Assembly: GCA_963805085.1 (NCBI GenBank)
Contig: CAWDTA010000003.1
Span: 1-64,000 of the forward strand
Length of the DNA: 64,000 bases
Reading direction: 5' to 3'
DNA from: an uncultured Veillonellaceae bacterium
GTDB lineage: Bacteria; Bacillota; Negativicutes; JARBTT01
Shown: piece by piece, positions 12,905-51,072 of the stretch
How positions within the stretch are numbered: position 1 is the stretch's first letter
Layout of the letters: every line of letters starts with the position of its first letter
Program-made: the position numbers and the translations under genes
The notes under the pieces: generated by a model
Told to the model about the DNA's origin: nothing
The model's database searches: none
What the model saw: only the letters and a program-made list of their open reading frames with translations

Positions 12905-12913
12905 TGTTATACT
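12905..12913 (+). promoter_or_regulatory. extended -10 promoter (TGtTATACT), the probable original RAYT promoter
   Basis: Removing the IS110 places it directly before GAGGTGAT and the RAYT ATG. Confidence 0.55.
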
Positions 12914-13056
12914 AATATTGAGACTAACTATATGAAGTCAAGAAAGAAAGCTAGTTTGGCAGGAAAAATTATGAGCGTTAAAATGGGCATAGAAATATAC
13001 ACCTAAGGCTGTTTGAAATTTAGCAGAAGGCGTAAGAAAAAAACAGAAAAAGATAG

Positions 13057-14235
13057 TTAGCTTTGAGGAATAAATGAAGAATTTGTTTTGAGTAAATGAA
13101 AGACCACTCTAACAAGTTTTTTACCAACGTGGCTCATGGCAACAGTGTAATGCTTTCCTTCTGTTTTCTTTTTGCAACAATACTCCTTAAAGGTAGTATC
13201 ACGCATAGCAACTAATCGAGCTGCGACTAAGAAAGCCCAGCGTAAGTAGGTAGAACCACGTTTAACCATGGGAGTATTCCCAGCATTAAACTTACCTGAC
13301 TGATAGGTAGATGGTTCAAGACCAGCAAACGCCAAAAGCTTTGCTGGTGTAGCAAAATTAGAGATATCTCCGATTTCCGCTAAAATGATTGCACCAATTG
13401 TGTAAGAAATTCCGGGGATTGTAAGGATCGGCGGATTAATATCTTTCATAATAGCCTTAATCTGTTGATCGAGAATGTTAATTTCCTCTTGGAAGTTGTA
13501 AATTAGTCGAATGGTTTGTTGTAACTCGAAGCTAACAGAAAGACTGTTACTGCCAATGGATTTCACTGCAAGTTCACGAAGTTGTATAGCTTTCTCCCTG
13601 CCGTAATGTCCCTTGGAGTTTTCAGCAATGAGATTGGTGAGTTTGGTCAGGTGACATTGTGCAATTTCCTTGGCGGTTGGATATTTGAGTAAAAGTGCAT
13701 AGCTTGAAGCTTGATGAATAGACCATACCAGTGAATGCAGTTCTGGAAACAAAATAGTAACTAATCTTGAAATTGAAATCTTAAGACGTGACCGCAAGGA
13801 AATCAGACGGAAACGATGCCTTACTAATGACTTTAATTCTGATATCTGATAAGATACGGGTGTATAGGACTTAGAGTCATCAGAAAAGAGCATGATAGCT
13901 AAAAATCGTGCATCGGTTTTGTCGGTCTTGGTTTTTCTTAAAGTTTGTCCCTTTCGGTATAGGTTGACGTGAAGTGGATTGAAAGTTGTGATTTCAAACC
14001 CTTTAGCTTTTAAGAAATTAGTAAGATTAGTGCTGTAATGACCTGTTGATTCAAGTCCTATACGTGCGTCTAAAAGCTTTTTATTGGGTAGAAAAGAAAC
14101 AACTGTATCATAGAAAAAATCAAAGCCCTCACGGTTATTGGTAAAAGTAAAATTACTATTTAGAACAGTGCCATCGCCGTTGATAATGCAGCAATCGTGC
14201 TTGGCTGATGCAACATCAATCCCGATATAAAGCAT
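13057..14235 (-). CDS. IS110-family DEDD recombinase/transposase
   Basis: YIGIDVASAKH, GLESTGHY, KTDKTDA, TIPGIS, YQSG motifs. Start moved to ATG 14235 because of the GAGGAG RBS at 14245-14250. Confidence 0.95.
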   Translation of the reverse strand: MLYIGIDVASAKHDCCIINGDGTVLNSNFTFTNNREGFDFFYDTVVSFLPNKKLLDARIGLESTGHYSTNLTNFLKAKGFEITTFNPLHVNLYRKGQTLRKTKTDKTDARFLAIMLFSDDSKSYTPVSYQISELKSLVRHRFRLISLRSRLKISISRLVTILFPELHSLVWSIHQASSYALLLKYPTAKEIAQCHLTKLTNLIAENSKGHYGREKAIQLRELAVKSIGSNSLSVSFELQQTIRLIYNFQEEINILDQQIKAIMKDINPPILTIPGISYTIGAIILAEIGDISNFATPAKLLAFAGLEPSTYQSGKFNAGNTPMVKRGSTYLRWAFLVAARLVAMRDTTFKEYCCKKKTEGKHYTVAMSHVGKKLVRVVFHLLKTNSSFIPQS

Positions 14236-14247
14236 AAATAACAACTC

Positions 14248-14494
14248 CTCTACAAGATTAACGCTGATTTCTTTCCACAAGACTTTATGCAATATGTATC
14301 CTTGTCCGATATAAAACGTCAAAGCGTTATCTAACTAATTAACAATTAAGCATAAAGCTGTGGTTGTATCCTCAAAAAAACAGTCAACCAAAATCAGTTG
14401 CTGTAGGTGATATAACCAATCCACAGTGTTACGTTAATCTTATAGAGTTTTAGACATTTTTTAAAGAAAAGGTAATGAAAACTCTACGGTTTTC
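14248..14494 (-). ncRNA. predicted bridge RNA of IS110 element 1
   Basis: Two stem/internal-loop domains carry segments matching the flanking target (14405-14412, 14371-14375) and the circle junction (14331-14337, 14301-14305). RNA ends are approximate. Confidence 0.8.
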
Positions 14495-14512
14495 ATTATA
14501 CAAGGTGATACT

Positions 14513-15271
14513 ATGCCAAGAAAAGCTCGGGTAAAAAGTGAAACAGGAATCTATCATCTGATATGTAGGGGAATCAATAAACAAAATATATTTGAAGATG
14601 AAGAAGACAAACAAAGATTTTTAGAAACGCTTGCATATTATAAGAAATTGAGCGGTTATTTGCTATATGGATATTGTTTGATGGATAACCATATTCATTT
14701 GCTGATAAAAGAGAATAAAGAATCAATAGACCAAGTGATAAAACGAATTAGTAGTAGCTATGTATATTGGTATAATCAAAAATATCAACGATGTGGGCAT
14801 TTGTTTCAAGAGCGATATAAGAGTGAAGTTGTCGAGACAGATGCATATTTTCTTATGGTTTTGAGATACATTCATCAGAATCCGGTAAAAGCAGGAATTA
14901 CCAAAAATGTAGGTAAATATTTGTGGAGTAGTTATCAAAATTATGTCGGTATACCAGGTATTACAGATATAGAGCTTGCGTTAGAAAATTTTTCGAGTGA
15001 CAAAGCAGCGGCGACAAAATTATTTATAGAGTATACAAATGAAAACAATGCAGATGAGTGTTTGGATTGTAGAGAAAAAGTGATTGTATCCGATCAAGAA
15101 ATAATGAAATATTTAAGTGAAATGGGAATAACAACGATTAGTCAATTGCAACGATTAAATAAAGAGCAACGGGATAATGTAATCCGAAAGATAAAAGAAA
15201 AGGATGGCATTACGATAAGGCAATTAGCAAGAATAACAGGAATTTCTAAAAGTGTAATTGATAGATTGTAG
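14513..15271 (+). CDS. REP-associated tyrosine transposase (RAYT, Y1_Tnp)
   Basis: MPRKAR...YHLICRGINKQNIF, YCLMDNHIHLL (HUH), GHLFQERYKS, YIHQNPVKAG, WSSY, and a C-terminal HTH. Confidence 0.92.
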   Translation: MPRKARVKSETGIYHLICRGINKQNIFEDEEDKQRFLETLAYYKKLSGYLLYGYCLMDNHIHLLIKENKESIDQVIKRISSSYVYWYNQKYQRCGHLFQERYKSEVVETDAYFLMVLRYIHQNPVKAGITKNVGKYLWSSYQNYVGIPGITDIELALENFSSDKAAATKLFIEYTNENNADECLDCREKVIVSDQEIMKYLSEMGITTISQLQRLNKEQRDNVIRKIKEKDGITIRQLARITGISKSVIDRL

Positions 15272-15563
15272 TGGGACAACAAACCTGTCCCTCTTGTCCC
15301 TAAGATTCAGAGGACAATGAGGGGAGTAATCATTGTTCTTTTTTATACGCTAAAATCAAAATTATTACAAAAAATCCTTTGATTAATGCATAAAATGGTT
15401 TAAAATGTTAATAAAAGAAATTAACTTATTTAAAGAGTCAGCAATCGGTTCACGGATATCTGTTGCTAATAATTGGAATAAACGACCTCGCCACGAGTCT
15501 CTCTTTTTGCTCTCAATTTCAGATTGAACTATAAGTAAATCAATAAATTTTTATTGGAGATGA

Positions 15564-16325
15564 ATGCTAATGGATAATACTAAAAGATTTTCAAATAGGG
15601 TAGAAAATTATGTTAAGTTTCGTCCATCGTATCCTAGTGAAGTAATTAATTTTTTATATACTAATGTCGGTATAAACAAGGAGTCGATAATTGCTGATAT
15701 AGGCTCGGGAACCGGCATTTTCACTAAACTAATACTTACACAAAAAAACAAAGTATATGCTGTTGAACCAAATAAAAAAATGCGGGAAGCAGCCGAAACT
15801 TTGCTAAGCAAATATGAAAATTTTATATCTGTAAATGGTTCTGCGGAAAGTACGACATTAACGGCGTCATCTGTTGATTTTGTTGTTTCGGCTCAAGCAT
15901 TTCACTGGTTTGATGGACTGAAGGCTAAAAAAGAATTTTCGCGAATTCTTCATCCTAATGGGAAAGTTATATTGGTTTGGAACAGTCGTATAAAGGAAGA
16001 CAATCCACTTTTTATTGACTATGAACAGTTGCTGAATCATTACAGTAAAGACTATAAAAAGATAAATTTTGAAAAGACCAGAGATACTAAACTAGAGGAG
16101 CTTTTTCAGAATTCGTATGATACTCGTATGTTTCCAAACAACCAATATTTAAATTTCGATCAATTGAAGGGGCGTTTATTATCATTATCTTGTGCACCAT
16201 TACCAGGTGATGACGCTTATGAGCCAATGATTAACGAGTTAAAAGATATTTTTGATAAGTATAGCAACAATGGCTTTGTATTTTTTCAATACCAGACAAT
16301 GATTTGTTGGGGAAACGTTCGATAA
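15564..16325 (+). CDS. class I SAM-dependent methyltransferase
   Basis: ADIGSGTG, AVEPN and AQAFHWFD motifs. Confidence 0.9.
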   Translation: MLMDNTKRFSNRVENYVKFRPSYPSEVINFLYTNVGINKESIIADIGSGTGIFTKLILTQKNKVYAVEPNKKMREAAETLLSKYENFISVNGSAESTTLTASSVDFVVSAQAFHWFDGLKAKKEFSRILHPNGKVILVWNSRIKEDNPLFIDYEQLLNHYSKDYKKINFEKTRDTKLEELFQNSYDTRMFPNNQYLNFDQLKGRLLSLSCAPLPGDDAYEPMINELKDIFDKYSNNGFVFFQYQTMICWGNVR

Positions 16326-16465
16326 ATATCCATTGCGTAAACAATAAAATCCAGATGTGACTGGTACTGATATGCTCCTTGGCATCCTGATTTTATGAAG
16401 GATGGATAAAAATGTAAAATGTTAAGTGCGGACAGATTTAATTAAGAGCATAGAAGGAGTTTACA

Positions 16466-17602
16466 ATGCAACAAAAGCCACGAATGCTATATATTGATAA
16501 TTTAAAGTCTCTCATCATTATACTTGCCGTTTTAACACATGCCGCGGTCACATATAGCGGTATGGGAAGTTGGTATTACAAAGAACAGCCCGAGCAAGGT
16601 TTAATTTCGATGCTGTGCTTTTTTGTTTTCCAGACATTTAGCCAAGCATATTTTATGGGATTAATGTTTCTGGTAGCTGGTTATTTTGCATCGGTGTCCT
16701 ATGAACGAAAAGGATGCACAAAGTTCATTAAGGATCGTATTATCCGTTTAGGAGCTCCGACATTGCTATATATGTTAGCAATTCATCCATTTATGTACTA
16801 CTTAATTGATTGGCATAATATTAGGACACAAGCTTCGTTCATAGAATTCTACCTCAATTATGTGCTAAGTCTCCGATTTCTTGGGGGAACAGGCCCATTA
16901 TGGTTTGCCTTGGCATTACTAATCTTCTCAATAGTATATGCTCTTATTAAGGTCAGAAATTGTGAACTTCAACACTCTGATAAATCGTTTTCTGTTAAAG
17001 TAATGGTTAAACTTATTCTTCTGCTCACGACCAGTACATTTGTTGTCCGATTTGTTGAGCCACTTGATACCTCTGTTTTTAATATGCAATTATGCTATTT
17101 TGCTCAATACATTATTTTATTTTCTTTCGGTATCCATGCACATCAAAATAATTGGCTATCGAAAATTGAATATCACATTGGGAAAAAGTGTATATTAACG
17201 GCCATCGTTCCTGGAATCTTATTTTTACTAAGCATTGTTTATTTGGGGGGAGCTTTAAAGGGCAACTCAGATGCTTTTAAGGGTGGATTCCACTGGCAAA
17301 GTCTGGCGTTTAATTTTTGGGAATCGGCTACTGGGGTATGCATGTCAGTAGGGCTGATTGCTTGGTTTCGACAAAACGTTAATTGGCAGAATAAATTACT
17401 GAAAAAAATATCGGATAGTGCATTTGCTGTGTACGTCTTTCAAGCCCCTATTCTTGTTTCAGTAGCACTGGCAATGCAAATGCTGATTCTTCCTCCTATC
17501 TTAAAGTTTTTACTACTTTCCGTACTTGCGTTGCCCATAGCGTTTTTAATAGCCCAAGTTATTAAAATCATACCGCTATTTCGTACCATTACTAAATTCT
17601 GA
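16466..17602 (+). CDS. acyltransferase-3 family membrane protein
   Basis: RMLYIDNLK...H, FLVAGYF, RIIRLGAP and GPLWF motifs; multiple TM segments. Confidence 0.85.
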   Translation: MQQKPRMLYIDNLKSLIIILAVLTHAAVTYSGMGSWYYKEQPEQGLISMLCFFVFQTFSQAYFMGLMFLVAGYFASVSYERKGCTKFIKDRIIRLGAPTLLYMLAIHPFMYYLIDWHNIRTQASFIEFYLNYVLSLRFLGGTGPLWFALALLIFSIVYALIKVRNCELQHSDKSFSVKVMVKLILLLTTSTFVVRFVEPLDTSVFNMQLCYFAQYIILFSFGIHAHQNNWLSKIEYHIGKKCILTAIVPGILFLLSIVYLGGALKGNSDAFKGGFHWQSLAFNFWESATGVCMSVGLIAWFRQNVNWQNKLLKKISDSAFAVYVFQAPILVSVALAMQMLILPPILKFLLLSVLALPIAFLIAQVIKIIPLFRTITKF

Positions 17603-17835
17603 TTATTAGGTATTTAAAGGGAAAGCTTGCCGATAGAAGGTAATGACGCAAAGCCAATGATTGAGTTGATTGCAGGGTATGTAGAAGAAATGCTTGATTA
17701 ATACATTGTAATATTGAATAGTTAGATTAAAAGCAGGCTTTCAACTCTTGTTAAATTTATGTGGAAATTTGGCAGGAGTTTTTTTGTTGCGAGGCAAATG
17801 TAGCAAAATATATATTTATTTTTAGGGGGATACGC

Positions 17836-19833
17836 ATGGAAGTTTTACGATCTGTTTGTCCGTATGATTGCCCTGATACATGTGGATTACTTGTTCATGT
17901 CGAGGATGGGAAGGCTGTCAAAGTGCAGGGTGATCCTGAACATCATTTTACTAGAGGGTCTCTTTGCCCTAAAATGGCGCATTATGAAAGAAGCGTTCAT
18001 TCTGAGAAAAGGATTCAAACCCCACTGCTTCGAACAGGGACAAAAGGAAGCGGTGCGTTTGTACCGATTTCTTGGGAGGAAGCGATTGAACATATCCGTA
18101 GAAGATGGACTGAAATCATTGATCAATATGGAGCTGAAGCAATACTGCCTTATTCCTATGCGGGAACGATGGGACTGGTTCAGCGGAATGCCGGACATCC
18201 ATTTTTTTATAGTTTAGGTGCAGCACGACTTGAGCGGACGATATGTTCATCGGCAAAAGGATATGGTTGGAATGCGGTCATGGGACAGACGATGGCACCG
18301 CATACAAACGAAATCCATAGTAGTGATCTAATTATTCTGTGGGGCATTCATGCGATGGCAACGAATATTCATATTATGCAGGACATAAATATTGCCAAAA
18401 GAAACGGCGCCAAGGTATGGCTCATTGATACGTATGAAACAAGTACGGCGAAAATTGCTGATCAAGTTATTGTTGTTCGACCTGGGACAGATGGTGCGTT
18501 AGCGCTAGGCATGATGCATGTAATAGAACGGGAAAACTTAGTTGATCATGCATTTATTCAGCAATATGTGCAAGGGTATGAAGAACTAAGAACGACTGTT
18601 TTGCCGAATTATTCTCCGGAAGTAGTTAGTGAGATTACGGGGATTTCAGTTGCTGTCATTGAAGATATGGCCAGACAGTATGCGAAAGCGCAAGGACCAT
18701 TTATTCGTCTAGGAAGTGGTCTATCACGGTATGAAAACGGTGCAATGACCGTGCGCACAATTACCTGTTTGCCTGGAATCGTTGGGGCATGGGGTAAAAC
18801 TGGCGGTGGCTTATTTGGGGGGACATCTACCGCAAGTGCACTTGATACGTCACTTATTACTCGCGAAGATTTTCAGGAGAAAACAACGCGGATGATTAAT
18901 ATGAATCAATTAGGTCAGGCGTTGAATACGCAAACTGGGCCGATCATGAGTCTGTATGTATATGCTTCAAATCCGGCTGCTGTAGCACCTGATCAGAATC
19001 GGGTGCTAGAAGGTTTGGCACGGGAAGATCTTTTTACTGTGGTTCACGAGCGCTTTATGACTGATACGGCAAAATATGCTGATCTTATTCTACCAGCAAC
19101 TACTTCTTTAGAGCATAGTGATCTGTATCGTGCATATGGGCATTATGGGATACAAAGAGCCTACGGTGTTATTTCGCCCGTAGGGCAAGCAAAACCAAAT
19201 TGGGAAGTGTTTTGTTTGTTAGCGGAAGCTATGGGAATACATAAACCTTTCTTTAAACAGTCAGCGGATGATTTGATAAATAGTATTTTAGCCAATCCGT
19301 CTCCATGGCTGTCAGATGCTTTGCTGAAATCTTTGTTTGAAGGGCGACCAATTGAATTGCCTTTGCCTGAGGGGTATAAGATGGAGTTTAAGACACTTTC
19401 GGGAAAAATCGAAATTCTAAATCCGCGTGAAGATAGCCTATTGCCAGAATATAAAAAACCTCATGGAGATCGTGCAGCGTTCTGGTTCATTAATTCACCC
19501 GATGTCCGTTTATTAAACTCATCTTTTAACGAAAGAGCAGATTTAATAAAAAACAATAAAATGATACTACAAATGAATCCGGAGGATGCTAGTAATCTAA
19601 GCTTAATCGACGACCAGCCTGTTATTGCTTATAATGAGCGGGGTGAGGTGAAGTTTACGCTGAAAATTACGGATAAAGTTCCGAATGGTGTTGTCGTTGC
19701 CGAGGGCGTTTGGTCAATAGAAAATACTACTGGCAATCGTTCCGCCAATGCGCTTACTTCTCAGCGTTTTACAGATCAAGGTAAGGGAAGTACTTTTTAT
19801 GATGTTAAAGTAGATGTAAAAGCAGAGGCTTGA
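17836..19833 (+). CDS. molybdopterin oxidoreductase (bis-MGD family, 4Fe-4S N-terminus)
   Basis: CPYDCPDTC...LCPK and FMTDTAKYADLILPA motifs. ATG 17836 follows an AGGGGG RBS. Confidence 0.9.
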   Translation: MEVLRSVCPYDCPDTCGLLVHVEDGKAVKVQGDPEHHFTRGSLCPKMAHYERSVHSEKRIQTPLLRTGTKGSGAFVPISWEEAIEHIRRRWTEIIDQYGAEAILPYSYAGTMGLVQRNAGHPFFYSLGAARLERTICSSAKGYGWNAVMGQTMAPHTNEIHSSDLIILWGIHAMATNIHIMQDINIAKRNGAKVWLIDTYETSTAKIADQVIVVRPGTDGALALGMMHVIERENLVDHAFIQQYVQGYEELRTTVLPNYSPEVVSEITGISVAVIEDMARQYAKAQGPFIRLGSGLSRYENGAMTVRTITCLPGIVGAWGKTGGGLFGGTSTASALDTSLITREDFQEKTTRMINMNQLGQALNTQTGPIMSLYVYASNPAAVAPDQNRVLEGLAREDLFTVVHERFMTDTAKYADLILPATTSLEHSDLYRAYGHYGIQRAYGVISPVGQAKPNWEVFCLLAEAMGIHKPFFKQSADDLINSILANPSPWLSDALLKSLFEGRPIELPLPEGYKMEFKTLSGKIEILNPREDSLLPEYKKPHGDRAAFWFINSPDVRLLNSSFNERADLIKNNKMILQMNPEDASNLSLIDDQPVIAYNERGEVKFTLKITDKVPNGVVVAEGVWSIENTTGNRSANALTSQRFTDQGKGSTFYDVKVDVKAEA

Positions 19834-19967
19834 TCGGTACATAATACTATTGAATAGTTATATCAAAAATATAAAAACAGGCTTCAAATTCTTGCATAAT
19901 GCTGAACTGAAGCCTGTTTTTATATTTTTAATTGCTAAAGTATAAACGTAATATAGTTTCTTTTTTA

Positions 19968-20690
19968 TTAATGTAATTGAAATGATATTGGTTGGACAAT
20001 GGTACAGGCAATGGGTTGGCCAGTACTTAGATTTTTTGCCGGAATAAATTGCCATTGTTCTACAGCTGCGATAGCAGCGTCATCTAAGATCGGATAACCG
20101 CTAGAGCGGGCAATGGATACTTCGCCAGTTCTCCCACTTGCTAGTATTTGAATTTTCACTACAACGGTACCTTCGAGGTTCTCTTGTCTAGCTGTAGGAG
20201 GATAGGCAGGATTTACTTTAGAAAGAATGCTTGGTTTAGCGATGCCATTCAATGACGATCCTACATTCCCTCCACCTGTACTAGCAGCTGACCCAGCAGA
20301 ACCACTGACGGATTCTCCTCCTATATTGCTTGCGCTAGACTGCCGTACTGTTGAAGCCGCTTCTGAAACCTCTGAAATATCAGCGTCAGTCATGGTTAAT
20401 GTGCTGGTAGTGACTGCTGGTGTTATCGCAGATTCTAGTTGACTAGGCTCGAAAGAACGGGTTGGAGCTGCTGCCATCGATTGTGAGATGCTAGGTGCTT
20501 GCTCTGTTTTTTGTTCCTTGAAATCAGAGTTAGTAGGATCAGAGTCTAGGGTCATTTCGATAAAAGTTTCCTCAGGTTCTTCAGGCGCGGCTGTTAATCC
20601 AGCAGTGAAATAGCCAAGCACCGGTAGCATCAAGAGATGGAGAAAAAGCGATACGATCATGGCTTTTTTCCACTTAACTGTATAGATCAT
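19968..20690 (-). CDS. tonB: energy transducer TonB
   Basis: N-terminal TM with His, and C-terminal PAYP...EGTV...SSGYPILDDAA...WQFIPA. Confidence 0.9.
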   Translation of the reverse strand: MIYTVKWKKAMIVSLFLHLLMLPVLGYFTAGLTAAPEEPEETFIEMTLDSDPTNSDFKEQKTEQAPSISQSMAAAPTRSFEPSQLESAITPAVTTSTLTMTDADISEVSEAASTVRQSSASNIGGESVSGSAGSAASTGGGNVGSSLNGIAKPSILSKVNPAYPPTARQENLEGTVVVKIQILASGRTGEVSIARSSGYPILDDAAIAAVEQWQFIPAKNLSTGQPIACTIVQPISFQLH

Positions 20691-20696
20691 AGTCGT

Positions 20697-21101
20697 TTAC
20701 CTCTTCTCTACAGCAACCGAAACTTTTTGAGCGCCTGCTTGTTTCAGAGAATCTAGGACAGCGATGATTTGACCATACGCCACGTCTTTATCACCACGTA
20801 GCACAAAAATAGGGTCAGGATTTTTTCCGAGTTCAAGGGCGACACGTTTTGCTAGAATATTGGCAGGTATTTCCTCGCTGTCGAATAATATGTTGCCACT
20901 AGATTGTACGGTGAGAGAAATGCTTTTTGTGGTATCGTGCTGAGCCGTTGAGGCTTGTGGCAGATTCACAGGCAGCGTATGCTGCTGAACCATGGACAAA
21001 GTGCTAATCATAAAGAATACAAGCAGAAAGAAAATAATATCAATCATTGGAATGACCATAAGTTGTGGTTGGTTTTCTATACGAAGATTACGCAATTTCA
21101 T
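20697..21101 (-). CDS. exbD: ExbD/TolR
   Basis: PMIDIIFFLLVFFM, VNLP and RGDKDVAYG motifs. Confidence 0.92.
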   Translation of the reverse strand: MKLRNLRIENQPQLMVIPMIDIIFFLLVFFMISTLSMVQQHTLPVNLPQASTAQHDTTKSISLTVQSSGNILFDSEEIPANILAKRVALELGKNPDPIFVLRGDKDVAYGQIIAVLDSLKQAGAQKVSVAVEKR

Positions 21102-21738: not shown

Positions 21739-21820
21739 AATAATCTCCTTTTATGTAATATTTAAAATTTTTACGTAGAACAAAAATTCTTGTTCTACGT
21801 ATTTTGCTATATGGGGTATA

Positions 21821-22648: not shown

Positions 22649-22681
22649 GTTGTAACACACTCCTTTCAATTACAATTCATT

Positions 22682-41053: not shown

Positions 41054-41428
41054 CTATTTTCCAAAGAAGAAACTACTAATAAGAATCAGAAAAACGATGG
41101 TTGATATGCCTACATATAACCAATCTTTTTCTGTAATAAAAACGATCGCCGAAACCCCGACCCGCATGATAGGTGTTAAAATGAGTAACACCAGCCCGAA
41201 CATAATTATGCCAAAAGGTTTAAATGCAAGGGCGCCAGCGACAATATCATCAAGCTTCGTTGGATAGGAATGTCCGATATATCCGCCCTCACCAGTTAGA
41301 AAAAAACGTACCATCCCCACTAGAATTACGGTTGCGCTGAGTAGCACACCAATACGTAAAGAATAACTTACAAATAGCTCCGCTTTATTAATTGCATGTT
41401 GAGAGGACTCACTTTGATGCTCTGCCAT
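41054..41428 (-). CDS. DUF1634-like membrane protein
   Basis: LRIGVLLS and GLVLLILTPIMRV motifs; coupled to the TSUP gene. Confidence 0.8.
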   Translation of the reverse strand: MAEHQSESSQHAINKAELFVSYSLRIGVLLSATVILVGMVRFFLTGEGGYIGHSYPTKLDDIVAGALAFKPFGIIMFGLVLLILTPIMRVGVSAIVFITEKDWLYVGISTIVFLILISSFFFGK

Positions 41429-42273: not shown

Positions 42274-42459
42274 TCACTCCAATCTTTTTGTTTGTCAATA
42301 AAAGTTGGTAAAATACTAATTTTACCAATATAATAACATTTCTCTATGATATGTACTTTAATCCCATTCACAAGTATAATATAAAATATACAATCGTTCA
42401 ATATTTTTATTTACTTTTTTACAATGTAAAGTACAATTCTGAAAGGAAGAGCTATAACC

Positions 42460-42915
42460 ATGCAATTTAAAAATCTCGATGAAATCGATCGGCAAATTCT
42501 AAAACACTTATCCTCGAATGGACGGTTGAGCCATGCTGAGCTTGGACGGCTCGTGGGATTAACCCGCGCCGCTGTCCGTGAACGAGTTGGGCAACTTGTT
42601 GAGCACGGGATTATTAGTCATTTTACCATTGTTGTAAATCCATTAAAGGCAGGGAAGAATCTTTCAATTTTTTTTAACATTTGTGTAGAATGGTCTAAAA
42701 TTGATCAGATCGCACAAGAGCTTTTAGATTCTGAAGAAATCACCAATGTATATCAAATGAGTGGTAGGCCTCATTTACATGTGCATGCATTATTTGATGA
42801 TCAAGATCATGCGAGCTCTTACGTTCAGAAGTTACGAGATATTGATGGAATTTCCAGTGTTGAATCCGAATTTCTTATCACACGTTACAAAGAACGGGGT
42901 GCTTTACTGATTTGA
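42460..42915 (+). CDS. Lrp/AsnC-family regulator
   Basis: LDEIDRQIL...NGRLSHAELGRLVGLT...RERV. Confidence 0.92.
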   Translation: MQFKNLDEIDRQILKHLSSNGRLSHAELGRLVGLTRAAVRERVGQLVEHGIISHFTIVVNPLKAGKNLSIFFNICVEWSKIDQIAQELLDSEEITNVYQMSGRPHLHVHALFDDQDHASSYVQKLRDIDGISSVESEFLITRYKERGALLI

Positions 42916-42997
42916 TACAAAACAAGCTTCAACTCTTACATCAGGCAGAGTTGAAGCTTGTTTTAGTTAGTAATATGATTTACTTAAAATATTATGT

Positions 42998-43029
42998 TTG
43001 ACTATAACATAGGTGTCATACTTTATAAT
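42998..43029 (+). promoter_or_regulatory. MerR-type long-spacer promoter with dyad
   Basis: TTGACT-20-TATAAT containing the dyad TATAACA-TAGG-TGTCATA. Confidence 0.75.
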
Positions 43030-43061
43030 GGAGAAGCATGGAGAGCAGGAAGGAGATTAAC

Positions 43062-43409
43062 GTGTTAATTAGAGAATTATCGCGCCATACTGGTGCAAGT
43101 ATAAGATCCATAAGATATTACGAGTCAAAAGGGTTAGTTTATGCTGAGCGTTTGGCAAATGGCTATCGCGATTATGACGATAGCGCAATTGCCAAAGTAA
43201 AGACAATTCAACTGTATCTTGGTTTAGGGCTTACGACTGATAATATTGTCCAAATTATCGATTGTCCGACTTTGCCACAAACGAATCAGCCATTGTGCAA
43301 GGAAGCTTATAAGTTGTATAAGGCTAAATTAGATGAAGTAAATGAGCAGATAGCAATACTACATACGATTCAATTGAAGTTACAAGAGAGACTTGGTGAG
43401 ATGGAATAG
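43062..43409 (+). CDS. MerR-family regulator
   Basis: IRELS...SIRYYE.KGL...R.ANGYRDY. GTG start after AAGGAG. Confidence 0.92.
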   Translation: MLIRELSRHTGASIRSIRYYESKGLVYAERLANGYRDYDDSAIAKVKTIQLYLGLGLTTDNIVQIIDCPTLPQTNQPLCKEAYKLYKAKLDEVNEQIAILHTIQLKLQERLGEME

Positions 43410-43430
43410 ATAATAAGGAGGAATTTTGTT

Positions 43431-44216
43431 ATGGTTATTGATAGTCATGCCCACGTTATGCTTCCAGAGGAGCATCAACTAGAATTAATGAAAGAAGCTA
43501 AGGTTGATCGGACGATTCTTTTTTCTTCTACCATTCATCCAGAAACGGCAAATAGTATCGAAACATTTGAAACAGAACTGAATAAATTGTACGATATTTT
43601 AAATGGCATAAAAAATCCAGTAGAGGAAAGAATTCAGGCGATTGAGGAACTTGCCAAAGTAGTTAGGGACAATCCAGAAAAATATATTGGCTTTGGCGCT
43701 ATACCATTGGGGTTATCGTATGATGAAAACTTAGTTTGGATAGAAAAATATATTATAGCCAATAAATTTCGCGGGATAGGGGAATTGGCTCCAGGTTCGG
43801 GAAATGTATCTGAATTGGAAGCATTGTTTCGCGCTTCACAGGAAGTTGGCAATTTACCGCTATGGGTGCATACTTTTTTCCCGTTGAATTTTGCAGATAT
43901 CAAAGAATTGCTTAGCTTAGCAAAACAGTACGCGAGTGTGCCAACGATCATCGGGCATATGGGCGGAATGCATTGGCTAGATACCTTGAAAGCAGTTCGC
44001 GATCTACCCAATACCTATTTAGACTTATCGGCAACGTATACTACGATAGCCCCATTATTTGCCATAAAAGAATTTCCCGAGAGAACCTTTTTTAGTTCGG
44101 ACGCTCCTTATTGTTCACCTTTAGTAGCAAGAACAATCATCGAGCAACTCGTGAAAGATTCACATGTCTTACAGCAAGTTTTAGGTGGCAATATCGCTAG
44201 ACTTTTGAAGCTGTAA
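43431..44216 (+). CDS. amidohydrolase family protein
   Basis: IDSHAH, GIGEL, WVHT, GHMGG and FSSDAPY motifs. Confidence 0.88.
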   Translation: MVIDSHAHVMLPEEHQLELMKEAKVDRTILFSSTIHPETANSIETFETELNKLYDILNGIKNPVEERIQAIEELAKVVRDNPEKYIGFGAIPLGLSYDENLVWIEKYIIANKFRGIGELAPGSGNVSELEALFRASQEVGNLPLWVHTFFPLNFADIKELLSLAKQYASVPTIIGHMGGMHWLDTLKAVRDLPNTYLDLSATYTTIAPLFAIKEFPERTFFSSDAPYCSPLVARTIIEQLVKDSHVLQQVLGGNIARLLKL

Positions 44217-44331
44217 GATAGTTTTAAAACTGGGGTTAAAGTGTTAAAAAGTATTCAGATTGAAAGAGTGCTTATCATCACAAAAGTGCATTTTTAGCGC
44301 AATTATGTGTTTGTCTGAGCTCGAATGAGTC

Positions 44332-44384
44332 AATAAGAGGCCAGTATTTGTAGGAACAATTCCTACAAATACTGGCCTCTTATT
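44332..44384. repeat. perfect 25-bp inverted repeat (terminator-like)
   Basis: AATAAGAGGCCAGTATTTGTAGGAA-CAA-TTCCTACAAATACTGGCCTCTTATT. Confidence 0.8.
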
Positions 44385-44588
44385 CTTACAAAAAAGTCAG
44401 ATTCAGTCTGCTATTTTTACTTTTTTTTTAGTGAGATAATATTAATAGGATTTATTATATTATAAGGATTTTAGGAGGGGGAAGTTTATATTTATTAGCG
44501 AGGTATTAGGCGTAAATCCACGTAGTATTTAATGATAATGCTGCAACTACCGAATAGAAGAAATTAAAGAAATGGGGTACACAAATTT

Positions 44589-45935
44589 ATGGGAAGCCTT
44601 TGGAACTTTTTCAAAACTGGAGCAGACATAGCGTTACTTAATGATCCAGCTAAAATTAAATCTCTATTTAATAAAAGTCGATGGCAAGTGTTTGGTTCTA
44701 TTACATTTGGTTATGCTTTATTTTATGTATTGAGACTTAATTTTTCTGTGATTAAGAAACCACTGATGGCCAATGGTATATTGGATGCACAACAATTGGG
44801 GATTATGGGATCGGCTTTTTTTATCGCATATGGACTTGGTAAATTTACAAATAGTTTTCTAGCGGACAGAATGAATAATAAACGATTTTTTGCTTTTGGT
44901 CTATTTATGTCTTCTATTGTTAGTACGCTTATGGGCTTTTGTAATTCATTTACGCCACTTATCGTTTTATGGGCGATCAATGGCTGGTTTCAGTCTTTTG
45001 GTGCTGGGCCTTGTATTGTTGCTTTGAATCAATGGTTTACAAATAAAGAACGTGGTACCTATTATGGCGTTTGGTTTACAAGTCATAATCTTGGTGCTGC
45101 CTTTACGTATGTAGTGACAGCGGTAATTGTTGGTAGTTATAGTTGGCAGATGGGATTCATTATACCAGGGATCGTTTGCTTAATTGGTACAGCTCTTATC
45201 TTTTTCTGTATGCATGATCGTCCTGAAACGATGGGCTTGCCAAACGTAGAAGCTTATAAAGGTGAAGAGCAGATTGTTACTACTAAAAAAAGCTCTAAAT
45301 CTGTAGGTCAACTTCAATGGGAAGTTGTTAAAAATCCAGCAGTATGGATTCTTGGTTTAGCAAGTCTTAGCTGCTATATCACACGGTATGCAATTGAAAG
45401 TTGGGGCATTATTTACTTAACAGCGGAAAAAGGGTATTCAACTATGGGCGCCGGCAGTATACTTGGTGTAATGCAATTTGCTGGAATTTTTGGTGCTTTG
45501 ACTTGTGGTCTTGTATCGGACAAGTTTTTTAATCATAAACGCAACAAACCAGCACTGATGTATGGCGTTTTATATACGATATCTATTGCACTTTTCCTTT
45601 GGGCACCAGCGAGTACAGCAATGGATATGTTTAGTATGTGTTTATATGGTTTTACTATGGGTGCGCTTGTATGTTACTTAGGCGGACTTATGGCAGTTGA
45701 TATTTGTCCTAAACGTGCAACCGGTGCTGCGATGGGGATGATAGGCCTTTTAAGTTATGCGGGGGCAGCATTGCAAGAACTTATTAGTGGGTATCTTATC
45801 AATGCCAATATGACAATCGCTAACGGTCAAAAGGTTTATGATTTTACCCTTGCTGGTCAGTTTTGGGTAGGCGCAGCAGTCGTTTCTTGTTTATTGGCAA
45901 CATTAGTATGGAACGCAAAACCGAAAGAAGAATAA
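44589..45935 (+). CDS. MFS organophosphate:Pi antiporter (GlpT/UhpC/PgtP family)
   Basis: GYALFYVLRLNFS, AYGLGKF, NGWFQ, ERGTYYGVWFTSHNLG and DRPETMGLP motifs. Confidence 0.9.
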   Translation: MGSLWNFFKTGADIALLNDPAKIKSLFNKSRWQVFGSITFGYALFYVLRLNFSVIKKPLMANGILDAQQLGIMGSAFFIAYGLGKFTNSFLADRMNNKRFFAFGLFMSSIVSTLMGFCNSFTPLIVLWAINGWFQSFGAGPCIVALNQWFTNKERGTYYGVWFTSHNLGAAFTYVVTAVIVGSYSWQMGFIIPGIVCLIGTALIFFCMHDRPETMGLPNVEAYKGEEQIVTTKKSSKSVGQLQWEVVKNPAVWILGLASLSCYITRYAIESWGIIYLTAEKGYSTMGAGSILGVMQFAGIFGALTCGLVSDKFFNHKRNKPALMYGVLYTISIALFLWAPASTAMDMFSMCLYGFTMGALVCYLGGLMAVDICPKRATGAAMGMIGLLSYAGAALQELISGYLINANMTIANGQKVYDFTLAGQFWVGAAVVSCLLATLVWNAKPKEE

Positions 45936-46161
45936 ATATATTTGTTATGTATCAAACAAATATATTTTGTGGCTAAAATAAAACTATGCTTTGTCTTTAC
46001 AATGAGTGAGATAGTTCTACTAAAGGAACTTTATCTCCTCATTGTTGTAGTTTAATTCAGAAGAAGACAAAGTGTGGCGGACATATCAAAGTTTCAGCGT
46101 TTAAGTACTTCTCGAAATTTCTAAGCGTTTTTCCTACTATATTATATAAGGAGATCCGATT

Positions 46162-47028
46162 ATGAATCTTAACCTTAATTGTATACTCTGTAATTTAAAG
46201 CAAGTCTTAACAGTAACAGATTTGGTCAAACTTGATTCTGTTAGCCGAGAAATAATTATGCGTGATGTTCTTGGATATTTACATGAAACTAATTTTAGAA
46301 GATCTAACCCTGAAGTTATAAAGGGTACGTGGGACATTATTACGAAGCATATAAAAAATACTAATCCTTACAGAGAAATAAAAAATTACTACAATCGTGA
46401 AATTATTAATATTGCTGACAAGGTAAGAAATATAATTAATGATTCGGACGATAAGTTCATGGCAGCCTTAAAAATTGCTATTACAGCGAACTTGATTGAC
46501 TTTGCTGCTAGTCATACTTTTGACGCAAAAATGCTGTTTGAAAAAATAAATTCTATTAATGAGCAAAATATGCCCATTGATGATAGTAAAAAATTATTCG
46601 AAAATTTAAAGAACGCAAAAACTTTGCTGTACTTGGGGGATAACTGCGGCGAAATTGTTCTTGATAAGATTTTTATCGAATACATACACAAAGTATTTCC
46701 GAATATTAAAGTTTATTTTGGTGTAAGAGGCGAGCCGATTGTTAATGACGTTACAATAGAAGATGCAGATATGGTGAAAATGGAAGAAGTGGCTGAAGTA
46801 ATTACTAATGGCGATGGTTCGCTTGGTACGGTAATTGAAAAAACGAGTTTAGTTTTTAAAGATGTATTTTATAAAGCTGACGTAATTATTGCTAAAGGTC
46901 AAGGAAACTATGAAAGCTTGAGCGAAATCAATCGCAGTCATATTTTCTTTCTTTTTATGGCAAAATGTAATGTTGTAGCAAGTTCATTGAACGTAGCTAA
47001 TCTATCAATAGTTTGTTGTGAGAATTAG
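46162..47028 (+). CDS. DUF89/ARMT1-like damage-control phosphatase
   Basis: CILC, ANLIDF, DNCGEIVLD, IVNDVT and AKGQGNYESL motifs. Confidence 0.9.
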   Translation: MNLNLNCILCNLKQVLTVTDLVKLDSVSREIIMRDVLGYLHETNFRRSNPEVIKGTWDIITKHIKNTNPYREIKNYYNREIINIADKVRNIINDSDDKFMAALKIAITANLIDFAASHTFDAKMLFEKINSINEQNMPIDDSKKLFENLKNAKTLLYLGDNCGEIVLDKIFIEYIHKVFPNIKVYFGVRGEPIVNDVTIEDADMVKMEEVAEVITNGDGSLGTVIEKTSLVFKDVFYKADVIIAKGQGNYESLSEINRSHIFFLFMAKCNVVASSLNVANLSIVCCEN

Positions 47029-47059
47029 ATAAGGCAATATTTATACTTACATAAAAACA

Positions 47060-47104
47060 GGGACAGGGGACTCAAATCCAAACACAGGAAGTGAGTCCAT
47101 GTCT
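47060..47104. repeat. isolated REP-like hairpin
   Basis: GGGACAGGGGACTCA...TGAGTCCATGTCTC; the start resembles the RAYT-flanking GGGACAAGGGGAC. Confidence 0.5.
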
Positions 47105-47304
47105 CGTACATCTATTTCAACAATCCACAATTTTATTAAAAATGTTTTTCAACACATCCAGAGTATGCACTTAGCAATTTGAAAAAAGCAATCTGGTAAT
47201 ATGTCAAGCCCATAAAAAATAAATTTTGTAAGCAATCCGTAAAAAATGGGTGCACTAAACAAGCTTCTTCTTCAAAACAAAGAAAAAGTAAAATAATGGA
47301 ACTA

Positions 47305-48585
47305 TTAAATTTGGCTTACTCTACTTGGAGAGTAAAGCTGATGGTTGACCAGCAATCCAAAAATCAGCCGGATGAATTTACGAGCAGTAAGTGCGAGTGC
47401 GCGTTTGTGCTGATGAGTTTTAACTTCATCATACTTTTTCTGGTAAAAAGCTGCATATTCAGCTAAATGATTCTTTACATGGCTTGCAGCTTCAATTAAA
47501 TAGTATCTGAGATAAGTATTGCCAGCTTTTGAAAGGATGGTATCATCGGCTCTGAAATTGCCAGATTGGTTTTCACGCCAGACAAGACCAGCATATTTAG
47601 CAAGAGCTTCCTGAGACTTAAAGGCCTCAATAGAACCAATCTCAGCAATAATGCCAGCAGCATAAACCGGACCAATTCCAGGAATGGATAAAAGGCTTTG
47701 GTAAGCGTTAGGATCAAGTCCCCGAAGCGTTTTCTCAATAGCCTTATTGATAGCCTTCATTTCAGATTCATAGGCTGAAATAAGGTTAAATGATGAGGCG
47801 ATAGAGATAGTTAAAGGCTCGTATAAACATTTATCCAATCGGTAGGAATTGCGAGCGGCTTGCTGTAGTAAAGAAGCTGTGTGTTCAGGATTTGCAAAAC
47901 GATTTTTGCCTTTTTTACAAATGTGTTCAATTAGTGCTGCCATCGGCATGTTAGCGATATCTTCGGTAGAAAGAAAATCAGTTAAAACCGAAGAAGCGGC
48001 AGCGCCATAGTTATTAGAAAAGGGCTGCTTATCATCGTCGAGAATAGAAAACTCACTAAATTTAAGAAAGATGTTTGAAAGCATATAGGTTTTCTCACGA
48101 GTAAGAGAACGAGCTATATGTAATCGATGGCGAGTTAGACGCTGCAAAGCTAAAAATTGACTGCCGCGCCAAGGAGCAGAGGTAATTCTGCCAACTCTAG
48201 CAAAATCAGCGATAATAAAAGAATCAATTGCATCAGTTTTGCCTAGACCGATATAAGACTTTTTGTAATTGGCAACCATCTTGGGATTTATACAGTAAAC
48301 ATGAGTGTCAAATGGCATCAATAATTCACAGGAAGATAAGTAGTTAGCTATGTGAATACCATAGAAAGATGTAGATTCTAAGGCAACAACCAGCTTATTA
48401 AGATCATGATTTTCAGAAAAAAAATCATGAAACTTTTTAGCCATTTCAACTGCACCTGGTTGATTATTGGGCACAGTAAATCGCAACAGTTTTTGCTCTT
48501 CAAAATCAATAGCGCAAACGACATTTTCGCGGGAACTTATGTCAATTCCCACAAACAAAGTAGAAAGAAGATCCGCCTTCTTCAT
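47305..48585 (-). CDS. IS110-family DEDD recombinase/transposase
   Basis: FVGIDIS, ALESTSFY, KTDAIDS, SIPGIG and NQSG motifs. Confidence 0.95.
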   Translation of the reverse strand: MKKADLLSTLFVGIDISSRENVVCAIDFEEQKLLRFTVPNNQPGAVEMAKKFHDFFSENHDLNKLVVALESTSFYGIHIANYLSSCELLMPFDTHVYCINPKMVANYKKSYIGLGKTDAIDSFIIADFARVGRITSAPWRGSQFLALQRLTRHRLHIARSLTREKTYMLSNIFLKFSEFSILDDDKQPFSNNYGAAASSVLTDFLSTEDIANMPMAALIEHICKKGKNRFANPEHTASLLQQAARNSYRLDKCLYEPLTISIASSFNLISAYESEMKAINKAIEKTLRGLDPNAYQSLLSIPGIGPVYAAGIIAEIGSIEAFKSQEALAKYAGLVWRENQSGNFRADDTILSKAGNTYLRYYLIEAASHVKNHLAEYAAFYQKKYDEVKTHQHKRALALTARKFIRLIFGLLVNHQLYSPSRVSQI

Positions 48586-48627
48586 AGAAATGTCACCACC
48601 TTTCTGGCTGAGAATAAGAAAGATAGA

Positions 48628-48924
48628 AAAGGAATACCCTGATCTTATTCACTGACCGCAGCCTCGCATAATAAGCATTCATCTGTGAAAGTAAATTTGC
48701 TGGAAAGCTTTCGCCAAGAGACGCAACATCTGTGTAAGCGGTATTTGATGAATAAGGCAGGCGTCAAGCTTTAAAAGCAATAACCAAAAGGTTTCGCAAG
48801 GAGGATAAGACGTTACCTTTGCTAAAATCTCTTAGAAATATTTTAGCATCAAGGGATTCCTTTAAGCATTAAAAAATAAAAAATAAGTTTTGTAAACAAT
48901 GGCGGATTATTGTTTACAAAACTT
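48628..48924 (-). ncRNA. predicted bridge RNA of IS110 element 2
   Basis: Target-matching segments at 48799-48805 and 48769-48772; donor-matching segments at 48728-48732 and 48663-48666, each pair inside a stem. RNA ends are approximate. Confidence 0.72.
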
Positions 48925-48945
48925 ATTATACGAGGAGGAATTAAA

Positions 48946-51072
48946 TTGAACTTTTTTAAGAATCGTTTAAAAGTAGATGTTGGAGTGGATACCAACATGA
49001 AAACGGAGACGAAAAGTTTCTGGGGTATACGGAATCGACTAATTGTCATATTTTTGGCAATTACTTTTATTCCTTTGATCGTAGTGGGGTTTTTTATAGA
49101 TTGCAACATACGTAGCAGTGCGCAAGCAGATTTCACTACAGCGACTACGCGTGAGGTAACTCAAGTTGATAATGCAATTTCTATATTTTTTGACGGAATG
49201 AAGAAGAATACTAAAATGTTGGCTGAGAGTCCTAGCATCCGGCGGATGGATGGAAAGCTTACCTTATATATGGACAAGACTGGTGGGGCGGATGGCATGG
49301 CGCCAATGAAGCCTTTAGAAACAGGGGGATATGAAGCGAATCTTTATAGTACTTTCGGGCAGGTTATAAAGGCGCATCCGGAAGTATCTACAATTTCTTG
49401 GGGAACTTCGGACGGAGGATACCTTCAATATCCGGCTATACCACGAAAAGCTGGTTACGATTCTCGTGCTAGAGATTGGTATAAGGATACAATCAAGCAA
49501 CCGGATAAATTATTGTTAACCGATCCTTTTTTAACATCTAAAGGCATCCCTACAATCGGTGTTTTTACAACTGTTCGAAATCAAGACAATACGATTAAAG
49601 GTGTTTTGGGCTTTAATATTGATTTGCCTGTAATTACAGAAATGATAAACAATATGAAGATGGGAAAAACTGGGTATGTAATTCTTCTTGATTCCCATGA
49701 TACAATAATCGCCAATCCAAAGAAACCAGATATGAATTTCAAAAATATTAAAGAAATGCAGATTGATGCTTTTAATGATATCAATAGTCTTGCTGGAACG
49801 TCTGTCGAAGTAACAATTGATGGGGTAAAACACCTTGCAAATGTAGTGGTATCGCCAACTACGGGGTGGAAATACCTTTGTTTGGTCGATGAGAATGAGG
49901 TGTTTTCTCAGTCGATTAGACTTCGACAAGTGATAATGGTTGCCACGTTTATTACTATTCTCATTGTGTTAGTCATTGCATTTTTACTGTCAAATCGAAT
50001 TGCAAAACCGTTAGTTACAATGGTACAAGTTTGTGACGAACTTGCTGCCGGTGATTTTCGTGATAAACCACGTCAAATGCTGAGAAAAGATGAAATTGGT
50101 CAATTAGCCGATGCTCTAGTAAATATGCGGGGGAGTATTCGTACGGTTTTTAAGCAGGTCAATGAATCGGCTGAACAGGTGGCGGCATCTTCGGAGGAAC
50201 TAACTGCCGGGGCAGAGCAGTCGGCGCAAGCTATTAGTCAGATAGTCGGAGCAATTAGCGATGTGGCACACGGAGCAGAGCAGCAATTGAAAGCAGTAGA
50301 CGGAACATCGGCAGTGGTAGAACAGATGTCAGCTGGTATTCAGCAAGCCGCCGCTAGTGCTAACCAGGTAGCCGGTATTTCATCGCAAGCCGCAGAAAAG
50401 GCAAGAGACGGCGATATGGTGGTGGAGCAGGCTGTTAGTCAAATGGAACATACTGAACAAAATGTCAATAAATCTGCACAAGTCGTTGCTAAGTTGGGCG
50501 AAAGGTCTAAAGAAATCGGGCAGATTGTTGATACGATATCTGGAATCGCTGGGCAGACCAATCTACTGGCGCTTAATGCCGCGATTGAAGCTGCCAGAGC
50601 CGGAGAACAGGGAAAAGGATTCGCCGTTGTAGCGGAAGAAGTGCGCAAGTTGGCGGAACAGTCACAAGAGGCGGCAAAACAAATTGCTGCCATGATTAGT
50701 GAAATTCAGGGTGATACAGATAAAGCCGTTGTCGCCATGGACGAAGGTACCCGCGATGTCAAAGGTGGGACGGAGGTTGTCGTTAAAGCAGGTCAAGCAT
50801 TTAAGGAAATTAGGGTTTTGGTAACGGAAGTTTCAGGACAAGTGAAGGAAATCTCTGCTACTATGCAGCAAATGGCCAGCGGTAGTCAGCAAATCGTAGC
50901 AGCTGTGAAAGAAATTGATGGGCACAGTAAAATGTCGGTTGGAAAAGCCCAGGCAGTGTCGGCGGCTACAGAAGAACAATCGGCCTCCATGGAAGAAATT
51001 GCTTCATCCAGTCAGAGTCTTGCTAAGTTGGCACAGGATCTTCAAACAGCCGTCAGTCATTTCCGGGTTTAG
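48946..51072 (+). CDS. methyl-accepting chemotaxis protein (dCache-HAMP-MA)
   Basis: YDSRARDWY and [38 protein letters not shown] motifs. TTG start after AGGAGG. Confidence 0.95.

Follow-up and report, generated by a model that had tools for sequence, protein, structure and literature searches.

The DNA analysed here, a window of 64,000 nucleotides (nt) from contig CAWDTA010000003.1 of an uncultured Veillonellaceae bacterium, carries two insertion sequences (ISs) of the IS110 family, element 1 and element 2, each inserted at the Shine-Dalgarno (SD) sequence of an intact gene. Element 1 lies before a Y1 transposase gene and element 2 before a gene for a methyl-accepting chemotaxis protein (MCP). 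Both are very probably autonomous IS110-group insertion sequences that work like IS621, with bridge RNA guides resembling the anti-SD tail of 16S ribosomal RNA, and homing to SDs is a property of both of their clades, not a coincidence of two insertions. That IS110 elements find their targets through RNA guides is established (PMC11208160; PMC11187229). Both elements are on the minus strand, and the recombination core that reads AG on the gene strand is CT on the element strand (coordinates are collected in Table 1).

Both recombinases exceed the cut-offs for PF01548 and PF02371 in a Pfam profile search and score 215 bits (element 1) and 228.8 bits (element 2) against NF033542, 'IS110 family RNA-guided transposase', for which the cut-off is 140. 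At 28% identity to each other, they are indeed the two clearly divergent RNA-guided enzymes that an initial annotation of this DNA had taken them for. The structures of IS621 and ISCro4 (PDB 8wt6 and 9t56) are distant matches (phmmer E 7e-21 for element 1, 5e-9 for element 2), and alignments to IS621 show IGID, E..G.Y, TD..D and SG retained in both proteins, with the D, E, D..D and SG serine of IS621 all aligned in that of element 1. I take the roles of the acidic residues and the SG serine in both recombinases to be those described in the IS621 literature. Both elements are intact, and their ends could be defined without terminal inverted repeats from the 2-nt CT core, which is found at all copies and in relatives. 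No plus-strand open reading frame (ORF) of at least 100 amino acids (aa) was found within 12923-14502 or 47189-48932 in a search for a hed-like ORF.

The initial annotation held that taking out either element would rebuild the ribosome-binding site of the gene beside it, and empty sites bear this out. Four close uninterrupted paralogues of the Y1 transposase unit on contig C2 align with the left flank of element 1 as far as 12922 and with its right flank starting at 14503, the two alignments overlapping by 2 bp. The rebuilt sequence, ...ATACTAATATTGAGGTGATACTATG, is present letter for letter in two of these paralogues; the others read ATATCGAGG and ATATCAAGG. For element 2, an IS-free contig of 6930 nt from a relative (run X4, an estuary metagenome) passes from 47187 to 48942 with 1754 bp fewer. 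Between the element 2 flanks it has thirteen letters, AGGGGGAATTTAA, in which an SD of the AAGGGGGAA type directly adjoins the upstream region, so that the IS-free locus joins its flanks at the SD and not at some different junction. This contig is collinear with the flanks in the window and differs from them at 49 of 751 aligned letters; its intergenic region before the MCP gene is also longer by about 177 nt, at a point corresponding to window positions 47134-47137. The MCP gene has no DNA match in G001, the only genome of the same genus (84% complete), which hence yielded no empty site.

The copies of element 2 in this genome tell the same story, with 4/4 at SDs. Every right junction reads ...TATACG-AG-GAG(G/T/A), followed 5-9 nt on by an ATG or TTG whose gene points away from the element; on the gene strand, the sequences after TATACG-AG are GAGGAATTAAATTG, GAGTAGTGCATATG, GAGAGTTATTATG and GAGGAATAATAAATG. 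The three left junctions terminate in AAAAAAG, ATAACAAG and GCTTAAAG. The genes so occupied encode the MCP, a Na/sulfate symporter, a short-chain dehydrogenase and a 101-aa ORF, and neither SD nor ORF is damaged at any of the five local sites of the two elements. As the annotation had proposed, both recombinase genes run antiparallel to the host gene and the SD is left with that gene, while the DNA upstream is displaced by 1.58 kb (element 1) or 1.75 kb (element 2).

The fourth copy of element 2 (C2:1949416-1950449) is cut in the recombinase gene at about residue 223 and has one TGA; its right-end (RE) side adjoins unrelated sequence, and its left end (LE) and SD junction are intact. In run X1 (2016, 'organism A'), contig ends fall at 47182-47187 and 48936-48940, close to the ends of element 2. 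A relative of element 2 in that run, with 117 differences over 1721 nt, reaches a word depth of about 3294, as against 156 for one adjoining 16-kb contig; contigs break at the element ends, which suggests about 20 copies.

What the two elements have in common is the content of their guides. The rule that assigns the left and right target guides (LTG and RTG) to strands was taken from PMC11208160. The left end of element 1 reads CUGUGG-AUUGGUU-AUAUCACCU-(hairpin)-UUUUUUGAG-GAUACAA-CCACAG, and its target, on the element strand, is GTATCAC-CT-CAATATT, of which the LTG matches 8/8 nt (TATCAC-CT) and the RTG 5 nt (TTGAG). The left end of element 2 reads ACGUC-UUAUCCUCCUU-(hairpin)-UUUUAAAG-CUUGACG, for a target of AATTCCTC-CT-TTTTTC. 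The LTGs (UAUCACCU in element 1, UCCUCCUU in element 2) each have 7 nt in common with the 16S tail GGAUCACCUCCUUUCU. Because the 16S genes all end ...GGATCACCTCCTTTCTAAG (8/8 gene copies found in the genome, with the tail GGATCACCTCCTTTC), the AUCACCU of element 1 and the CCUCCUU of element 2 read as two overlapping registers of the anti-SD tail. The annotation's suggestion that the left target guides are anti-SD-like thus stands, and these guides form part of the 5' side of an internal loop in a structured RNA.

The structure of that RNA was derived from an alignment of 35 relatives of element 2, which folds into a 5' stem-loop followed by two domains with large internal loops, with compensatory changes in 27 of the 42 predicted pairs. 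When a 4-bp outer stem of the target loop is added, 92.5% of cells are paired (as opposed to 29-41% when the partners are slid), both sides change in 30/46 pairs, and 0/500 shuffles reach the observed values. The added stem is itself weaker, at 73.6% paired, and both guide segments fall in unpaired columns. In the donor loop of the same alignment, read by eye, a GCGAG facing CT-CG is invariant and the RNA letters CAGAT, CAAAT or CAGGT follow the RE sequences CCAGATTG, CCAAATTG or CCAGGTTG in most rows, the exceptions being L113, L133 and L139. Many relatives (L075-L084, L089-L107, L108, L120, L126 and L133) have left ends of 430-536 nt as compared with about 340, the additional 90-190 nt lying between tip hairpin and bridge RNA; some of these inserts contain long palindromes.

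The preference for SDs runs through the relatives of both elements. A site was scored as passing the SD test when an ATG, GTG or TTG 3-15 nt from the core began an ORF of 60 codons or more that pointed away from the element. For element 2, I collected 80 genome loci with a recombinase of at least 60% identity, from Negativicutes, Clostridia, Tissierellia and others by their record titles; of these, 12 were set aside (in 6 the left end could not be recognised, in 6 the flanks were short or contained N), leaving 68 usable distinct left flanks. The test was passed at 54/68 of these sites, with the start codon mostly 10-13 nt from the core, compared with 286 of 3050 random positions (9%) in the same loci. 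The site consensus of this clade is CAT-N6-9-(T)CTC-CT-T, and the elements themselves mostly start with CT followed by CGTATAAT on the left and finish on the right with TTGACAT-N12 and then CT. For element 1, 80 metagenome loci at 36-91% identity yielded 54 usable distinct flanks after 26 were dropped (21 with a short flank or none, 5 duplicates). Here 36/54 sites pass, or 30/41 among relatives of at least 55% identity, and a typical site is CAT-N5-(A/T)TCAC-CT-C with the start codon mostly 8-9 nt from the core. Measuring the distance to start codons in related copies was a check that the annotation had proposed. Its further statement that these target sites never break an ORF went too far, as 14/68 and 18/54 of the relatives' sites fail the test. 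Several of the 14 misses in the element 2 clade still show a CAT at the right distance, with a shorter ORF. Automatic detection of left ends misplaced some boundaries, among them L004 and probably L141, L171, L180, L181 and L216, and these were kept as misses.

Among multi-copy relatives, which came from four genomes, 4/6 sites pass in the G040 family and 2/3 in the G057 family; the G241 and G280 families, which target repetitive extragenic palindromic (REP) sequences, here GC-rich palindromic repeats, score 0/12. Genome G040 also holds three element 2-like loci, L002, L020 and L028 (88% and 42% identity), whose left flanks are the same over 146 nt or more. By its coordinates this shared flank belongs to another IS110 recombinase gene, which is on the opposite strand and starts exactly at their CT core, and what it looks like is nested or paired SD-site insertion, in three occurrences.

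Guides and targets change together, the covariation that the annotation had proposed looking for. Over positions -4 to -8, the LTGs of the element 2 clade (37 guides, 68 sites) match their own sites at 2.39 of 5 positions, compared with 1.69 +/- 0.14 for permuted guides. None of 10000 permutations of the 37 guide classes reaches the observed match; 27 of the classes score higher on their own sites and 10 score lower. In the Clostridium magnum family, 18 sites reading TTCCTC-CT-TTA mirror an LTG of ..UUCCUC-CU and an RTG of ..UAAAG, and right target positions +1 to +3 follow the guide. The element 1 lineage behaves alike: in G241 the LTG GCGAACCC-CU (the guide is listed also as TTTCGTAG) and the RTG UUUCGUAG serve the target GCGAACCC-CT-ACG, and in G280 the LTG UUGGGAC-CU (also TTGAAGAAG) and the RTG UUGAAGAAG serve TTGGGAC-CT-TCTTC. 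The target-loop architecture of element 1, with guides that follow their targets, was recovered by pattern in its relatives. Variation within a single family is less one-sided. The C1 copy L018 has a 1-nt deletion in its guide (UUAUCUCCUU), and three Haloimpatiens copies have substitutions or insertions. As candidates for natural reprogramming these four guide variants (L018, L079, L081 and L084) point both ways: two match their own site better than the guide of the family does, and two match it less well. Two element 2 relatives outside SDs follow their guides as well. L087, with an LTG of ..UUCACUC-CU, is in a CACTCCT-type repeat tract, and L088, with ..GGUCCCC-CU, is in a GGGGACGG..CTGTCCCC hairpin that resembles the ends of the Y1 unit.

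Several observations weigh against a simple account in which guide pairing does all the work. The four local sites of element 2 share only AA-AG-GAG, and the distal guide positions of its clade are only partly matched (2.4/5). In a crude test, a start codon and ORF follow 672 of 1898 occurrences of AAGGAG in the genome, 82 of 164 of AAAGGAGG and 223 of 430 of AGGAGGA, so guide-like words precede genes a third to half of the time and insertions do so in 79% of cases; selection after insertion or an extra preference must therefore contribute. The ends of the 16S genes (for example at C3:372823) are a near-perfect target of both guides, GGATCAC-CT-CCTTTC and CACCTC-CT-TTCT, and yet 8/8 are intact, which counter-selection would explain. 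Kin are not independent, and the counts among relatives therefore overstate the number of independent events. The RNA structure of element 1 was read by eye and by pattern search, the covariation statistics covering the element 2 clade, and no match at gathering score was found in the window with Rfam 15, where the presence of a bridge-RNA model was not checked. A search of public sequencing runs gave 12 that each cover a small share of this DNA, with no RNA run among them.

These points raise the question of whether the SD association comes mainly from survival, a short purine hexamer being hit anywhere and intragenic insertions then being lost. The excess of insertions beside genes (54/68) over guide-like words beside genes and the weak distal matches would fit such a history. 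I nevertheless consider it unlikely as the main cause. Survival does not account for the narrow spacing of the start codon, 10-13 nt in one clade and 8-9 nt in the other, nor for the fixed orientation, nor for guides that covary with their targets, and the sister lineages whose guides differ are found in REP-like repeats, with 0/12 at SDs. Moreover, selection alone would favour any intergenic place, and the usual refuge, according to PMC2942039, is the convergent intergenic region.

The host of element 1 invites a second alternative. The Y1 unit is about 855 nt long and consists of a hairpin, the gene for the 252-aa transposase and an inverted hairpin. The transposase matches PF01797 with 60.5 bits (cut-off 23) and NF047646 with 73.9 bits, under the cut-off of 80. 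Because the genome has only 15 hairpins of this type and 5-6 copies of the unit, the unit behaves more like an IS200-type element than like a RAYT with many REPs. Element 1 might then be a specialist parasite of this mobile unit, for which the SD is incidental, much as some other IS110 members are aimed at REP sequences or at the termini of mobile elements. Its guides match 8 and 5 nt of the site, TTGAGGTGATA occurs only 8 times in the genome, the unit offers repeated sites (5-6 copies at 95-98% identity), and L088, a relative of element 2, is in a GGGGAC..GTCCCC hairpin like the end of a Y1 unit. On the other hand, the other copies of the unit in the genome are unoccupied, and relatives at 57-90% identity are found at (A/T)TCAC-CT-C beside the start codons of many different genes (30/41 usable sites at 55% identity or above). 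One of them, L140 (90% identity, LTG CGAUCACCU), occupies the CATATGATCAC-CT of another gene. Specialization on the Y1 unit thus seems rather improbable.

With homing by anti-SD-like guides as the preferred reading, the following course of events may be proposed. The bridge RNA would be encoded in the non-coding left end, ahead of the recombinase gene, and its LTG is a pyrimidine run that appears to copy part of the anti-SD tail, (U)AUCACCU in element 1 and (U)CCUCCUU in element 2; because it does so, the DNA selected would be antisense to an SD. Recombining at the CT core, the element would land where the SD begins, on its 5' side, always antiparallel to the gene because the guide is asymmetric. 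SD and ORF stay whole, with 1.6-1.75 kb of antisense IS now lying between them and their promoter.

The tips of both elements carry what looks like a divided promoter. Joining RE to LE in a circle would create TTGACA-17-TATAAT in element 2 and, via the core CT and TG, TTGACT-17-TATAAT in element 1, so that a consensus promoter would exist only on the excised circle; the integrated element would keep only a -10 at its left tip. The hairpin at that tip is preserved by compensatory changes in the relatives of element 2 and has a shorter counterpart in element 1, which I read from the sequence, since the hairpin scan did not list it (too few G-C pairs for the scan). Such a hairpin may stop transcription that enters from outside, and a transcript from the junction promoter, which would start inside the 5' arm and so lack the full arm, may escape it. 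An antiparallel position at the start of a gene would also mean that no host transcription enters the left end in the sense direction. Circle formation and expression of the RNA are likewise proposals. SDs are likely favoured because they are present in every host, lie outside ORFs and are shielded from incoming sense transcription.

For the host gene, the likely consequence of insertion is silencing. The putative -10 TGTTATACT of the Y1 unit (12905-12913) is 8 nt before the insertion point, and element 1 thus probably sits at the transcription start of that unit. Consensus scans gave no outward promoter toward the host genes at either LE tip, and they gave a weak promoter-like match for the MCP gene at 47018-47047; the numbers of such hits are not above those in shuffles, so the scans carry little weight.

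The initial annotation went on to suggest a reversible switch, useful to the host, in which silencing spares SD and ORF and precise excision restores expression. SD and ORF are in fact intact at every local site, PMC11208160 describes IS110 elements as scarless excisers, and a relative (X4) has an IS-free allele of the MCP locus. However, no excision product or circle junction was seen in the contigs examined, which drop rare variants, and the occupied genes (MCP, short-chain dehydrogenase, Na/sulfate symporter, small ORF and Y1 transposase) share no function. The IS-free contig differs at about 3-13% of its aligned flank letters (49/751), and may just as well never have been occupied. A preprint on another IS110 element (10.1101/2025.10.25.684509) reports no evidence of canonical cut-out and a preserved donor copy. 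A host-useful switch is therefore very unlikely, and the idea that SD-homing IS110 elements act as RNA-programmed on/off switches giving phase variation of accessory genes, for example of a chemoreceptor, is just as hard to believe. On a bold reading, the anti-SD-like loop of an abundant bridge RNA might also bind SDs on mRNAs.

Two further features of this genome can be placed beside these elements. A third IS110 lineage has two copies (the C1:298887-300601 region and C2:303771-305355), 83% identical to each other, with the same arrangement of ends as elements 1 and 2 (TTGACT-N13-CT ... CT-TATATAAT) and a pyrimidine-rich LTG, CUCUCCUU; the C2 copy has a direct repeat of about 30 nt on both flanks. 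Next to element 1, an ORF with haemagglutinin repeats (PF13332; 12304-12915) ends where the Y1 unit begins (about 12865). The last 165 nt of the haemagglutinin stretch (12700-12864) recur at 98-100% identity at C3:5708-5872, C3:10118-10282 and C1:13364-13528, two of the three being inside the window. They look like repeated cassettes of a filamentous-haemagglutinin/CdiA-type gene.

Table 1. Positions in the window of the two IS110-family elements, their guides, tips and junctions, and the genes at which they are inserted.
Feature	Position	Strand	Remarks
Element 1, IS110-family	12923-14502	-	1580 bp; single copy in genome
Element 1 recombinase gene	13057-14235	-	392 aa; DEDD_Tnp_IS110 + Transposase_20
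Element 1 target-binding loop	14357-14426	-	outer stem CUGUGG/CCACAG, LTG, inner hairpin, RTG
Element 1 LTG UAUAUCACCU	14405-14414	-	reverse complement reading
Element 1 RTG UUUUUUGAG	14371-14379	-	
-35-like TTGACT, element 1	12936-12941	-	13 nt from RE tip
TATAAT, element 1	14495-14500	-	2 nt inside LE tip, then hairpin AUGAAAAC..GUUUUCAU and U-rich run
AG core copy, RE junction of element 1	12921-12922	.	2-bp flank overlap on empty paralogues
AG core, SD AGGTGAT and ATG (14513) of Y1 transposase gene	14503-14515	+	
Y1 transposase gene	14513-15271	+	252 aa; intact
Left end of interrupted Y1-transposase (RAYT/IS200-like) unit	12865-12922	+	hairpin GGGGACAGGTTTACTGTCCC; left half-target ...ATATTG-AG
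Possible extended -10 TGTTATACT of Y1 unit	12905-12913	+	sequence reading; promoter scan did not list it
Element 2, IS110-family	47189-48932	-	1744 bp; 3 full copies and 1 truncated copy in genome
Element 2 recombinase gene	47305-48585	-	426 aa; DEDD_Tnp_IS110 + Transposase_20
Element 2 bridge RNA region	48631-48860	-	alignment of 35 relatives
Element 2 LTG UUAUCCUCCUU	48798-48808	-	seven nt (CCUCCUU) identical to 16S tail
Element 2 RTG UUUUAAAG	48769-48776	-	pairs with CT-TTAAAA, element strand
Probable right donor guide UUAUGCGAG, element 2	48663-48671	-	would pair with LE-tip CT-CGTATAA, one G-T pair; deduced from alignment
-35 TTGACA, element 2	47202-47207	-	13 nt from RE tip; motif kept in RE ends of relatives
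19-bp hairpin and UUUUAUUUUU, element 2 LE tip	48882-48927	-	overlaps TATAAT 48925-48930
AG core copy, RE junction of element 2	47187-47188	.	
AG core, SD AGGAGG and TTG (48946) of MCP gene	48933-48948	+	second core AG 48933-34

How do these elements compare with systems already described? Like IS621 and ISCro4, they have the same two protein domains, the catalytic residues in alignment, a CT core, a left-end bridge RNA and a promoter split between the two ends. In both cases the 5' side of the target loop reads like the top strand of the left target and the core, and the 3' side complements the core and the right target. Unlike in IS621 and ISCro4, where the target is a REP sequence, the elements here are aimed at an SD beside a start codon, many distal mismatches are tolerated at their sites, and a terminator hairpin lies at the very LE tip. 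With the REP-targeting elements ISPpu9 and ISPpu10 the likeness is to the sister families of element 1, G241 and G280, whose guides match the GC-rich palindromic repeats in which they lie, whereas the targets of elements 1 and 2 are defined by gene starts and not by repeats. The IS1111 group with its seekRNA shares the recombinase superfamily and the RNA-guided principle, but, as described in PMC11187229, it has its guide RNA downstream of the recombinase gene and subterminal inverted repeats, while here the long non-coding region is upstream and the ends could be defined without subterminal repeats.

Three lessons may reach beyond this window. Among the IS110 lineages of Firmicutes the SD habit is common and has recurred; this one genome has at least three with pyrimidine-rich, anti-SD-like guides. 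For the engineering of bridge recombinases, these are natural guides that are short and mismatch-tolerant, with hundreds of potential sites per genome. In annotation, an antiparallel IS110 element directly upstream of an intact gene is better regarded as a promoter-uncoupling insertion than as neutral baggage.

IS900 and IS901 of Mycobacterium avium, which I take to be members of the IS110 family, show a comparable habit. According to PMC2942039, the insertion point of both lies between SD and start codon, always in the same orientation, and PMC8141618 gives CATGNNNNNNTCTCCTT as the genome-wide motif of IS900; Doran 1997 appears by title among the references of both papers. Elements 1 and 2 belong to a different phylum and are likened to IS900 and IS901 by published description, not by sequence, but they too are upstream of genes, beside an SD and start codon, in one orientation, and the IS900 motif as given there is strikingly similar to the consensus of the element 2 clade, CAT-N6-9-(T)CTC-CT-T. 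Unlike in those descriptions, the crossover here is at the 5' edge of the SD, which remains with the gene, a difference that may reflect how the ends were drawn in the published work. IS900 is also said to carry an ORF on the opposite strand, 'hed'; since elements 1 and 2 are without any of at least 100 aa, an explanation through 'hed' does not carry over to them. A literature search, with supplementary target logos outside its scope, found no text in which the anti-SD is connected with the guide of a bridge RNA or seekRNA. The SD-proximal target habit is thus already known for IS900 and IS901, and what is added here is its explanation by a guide and its extent across whole clades; the likely reason for the old observation is a guide RNA that imitates the anti-SD tail of the ribosome.

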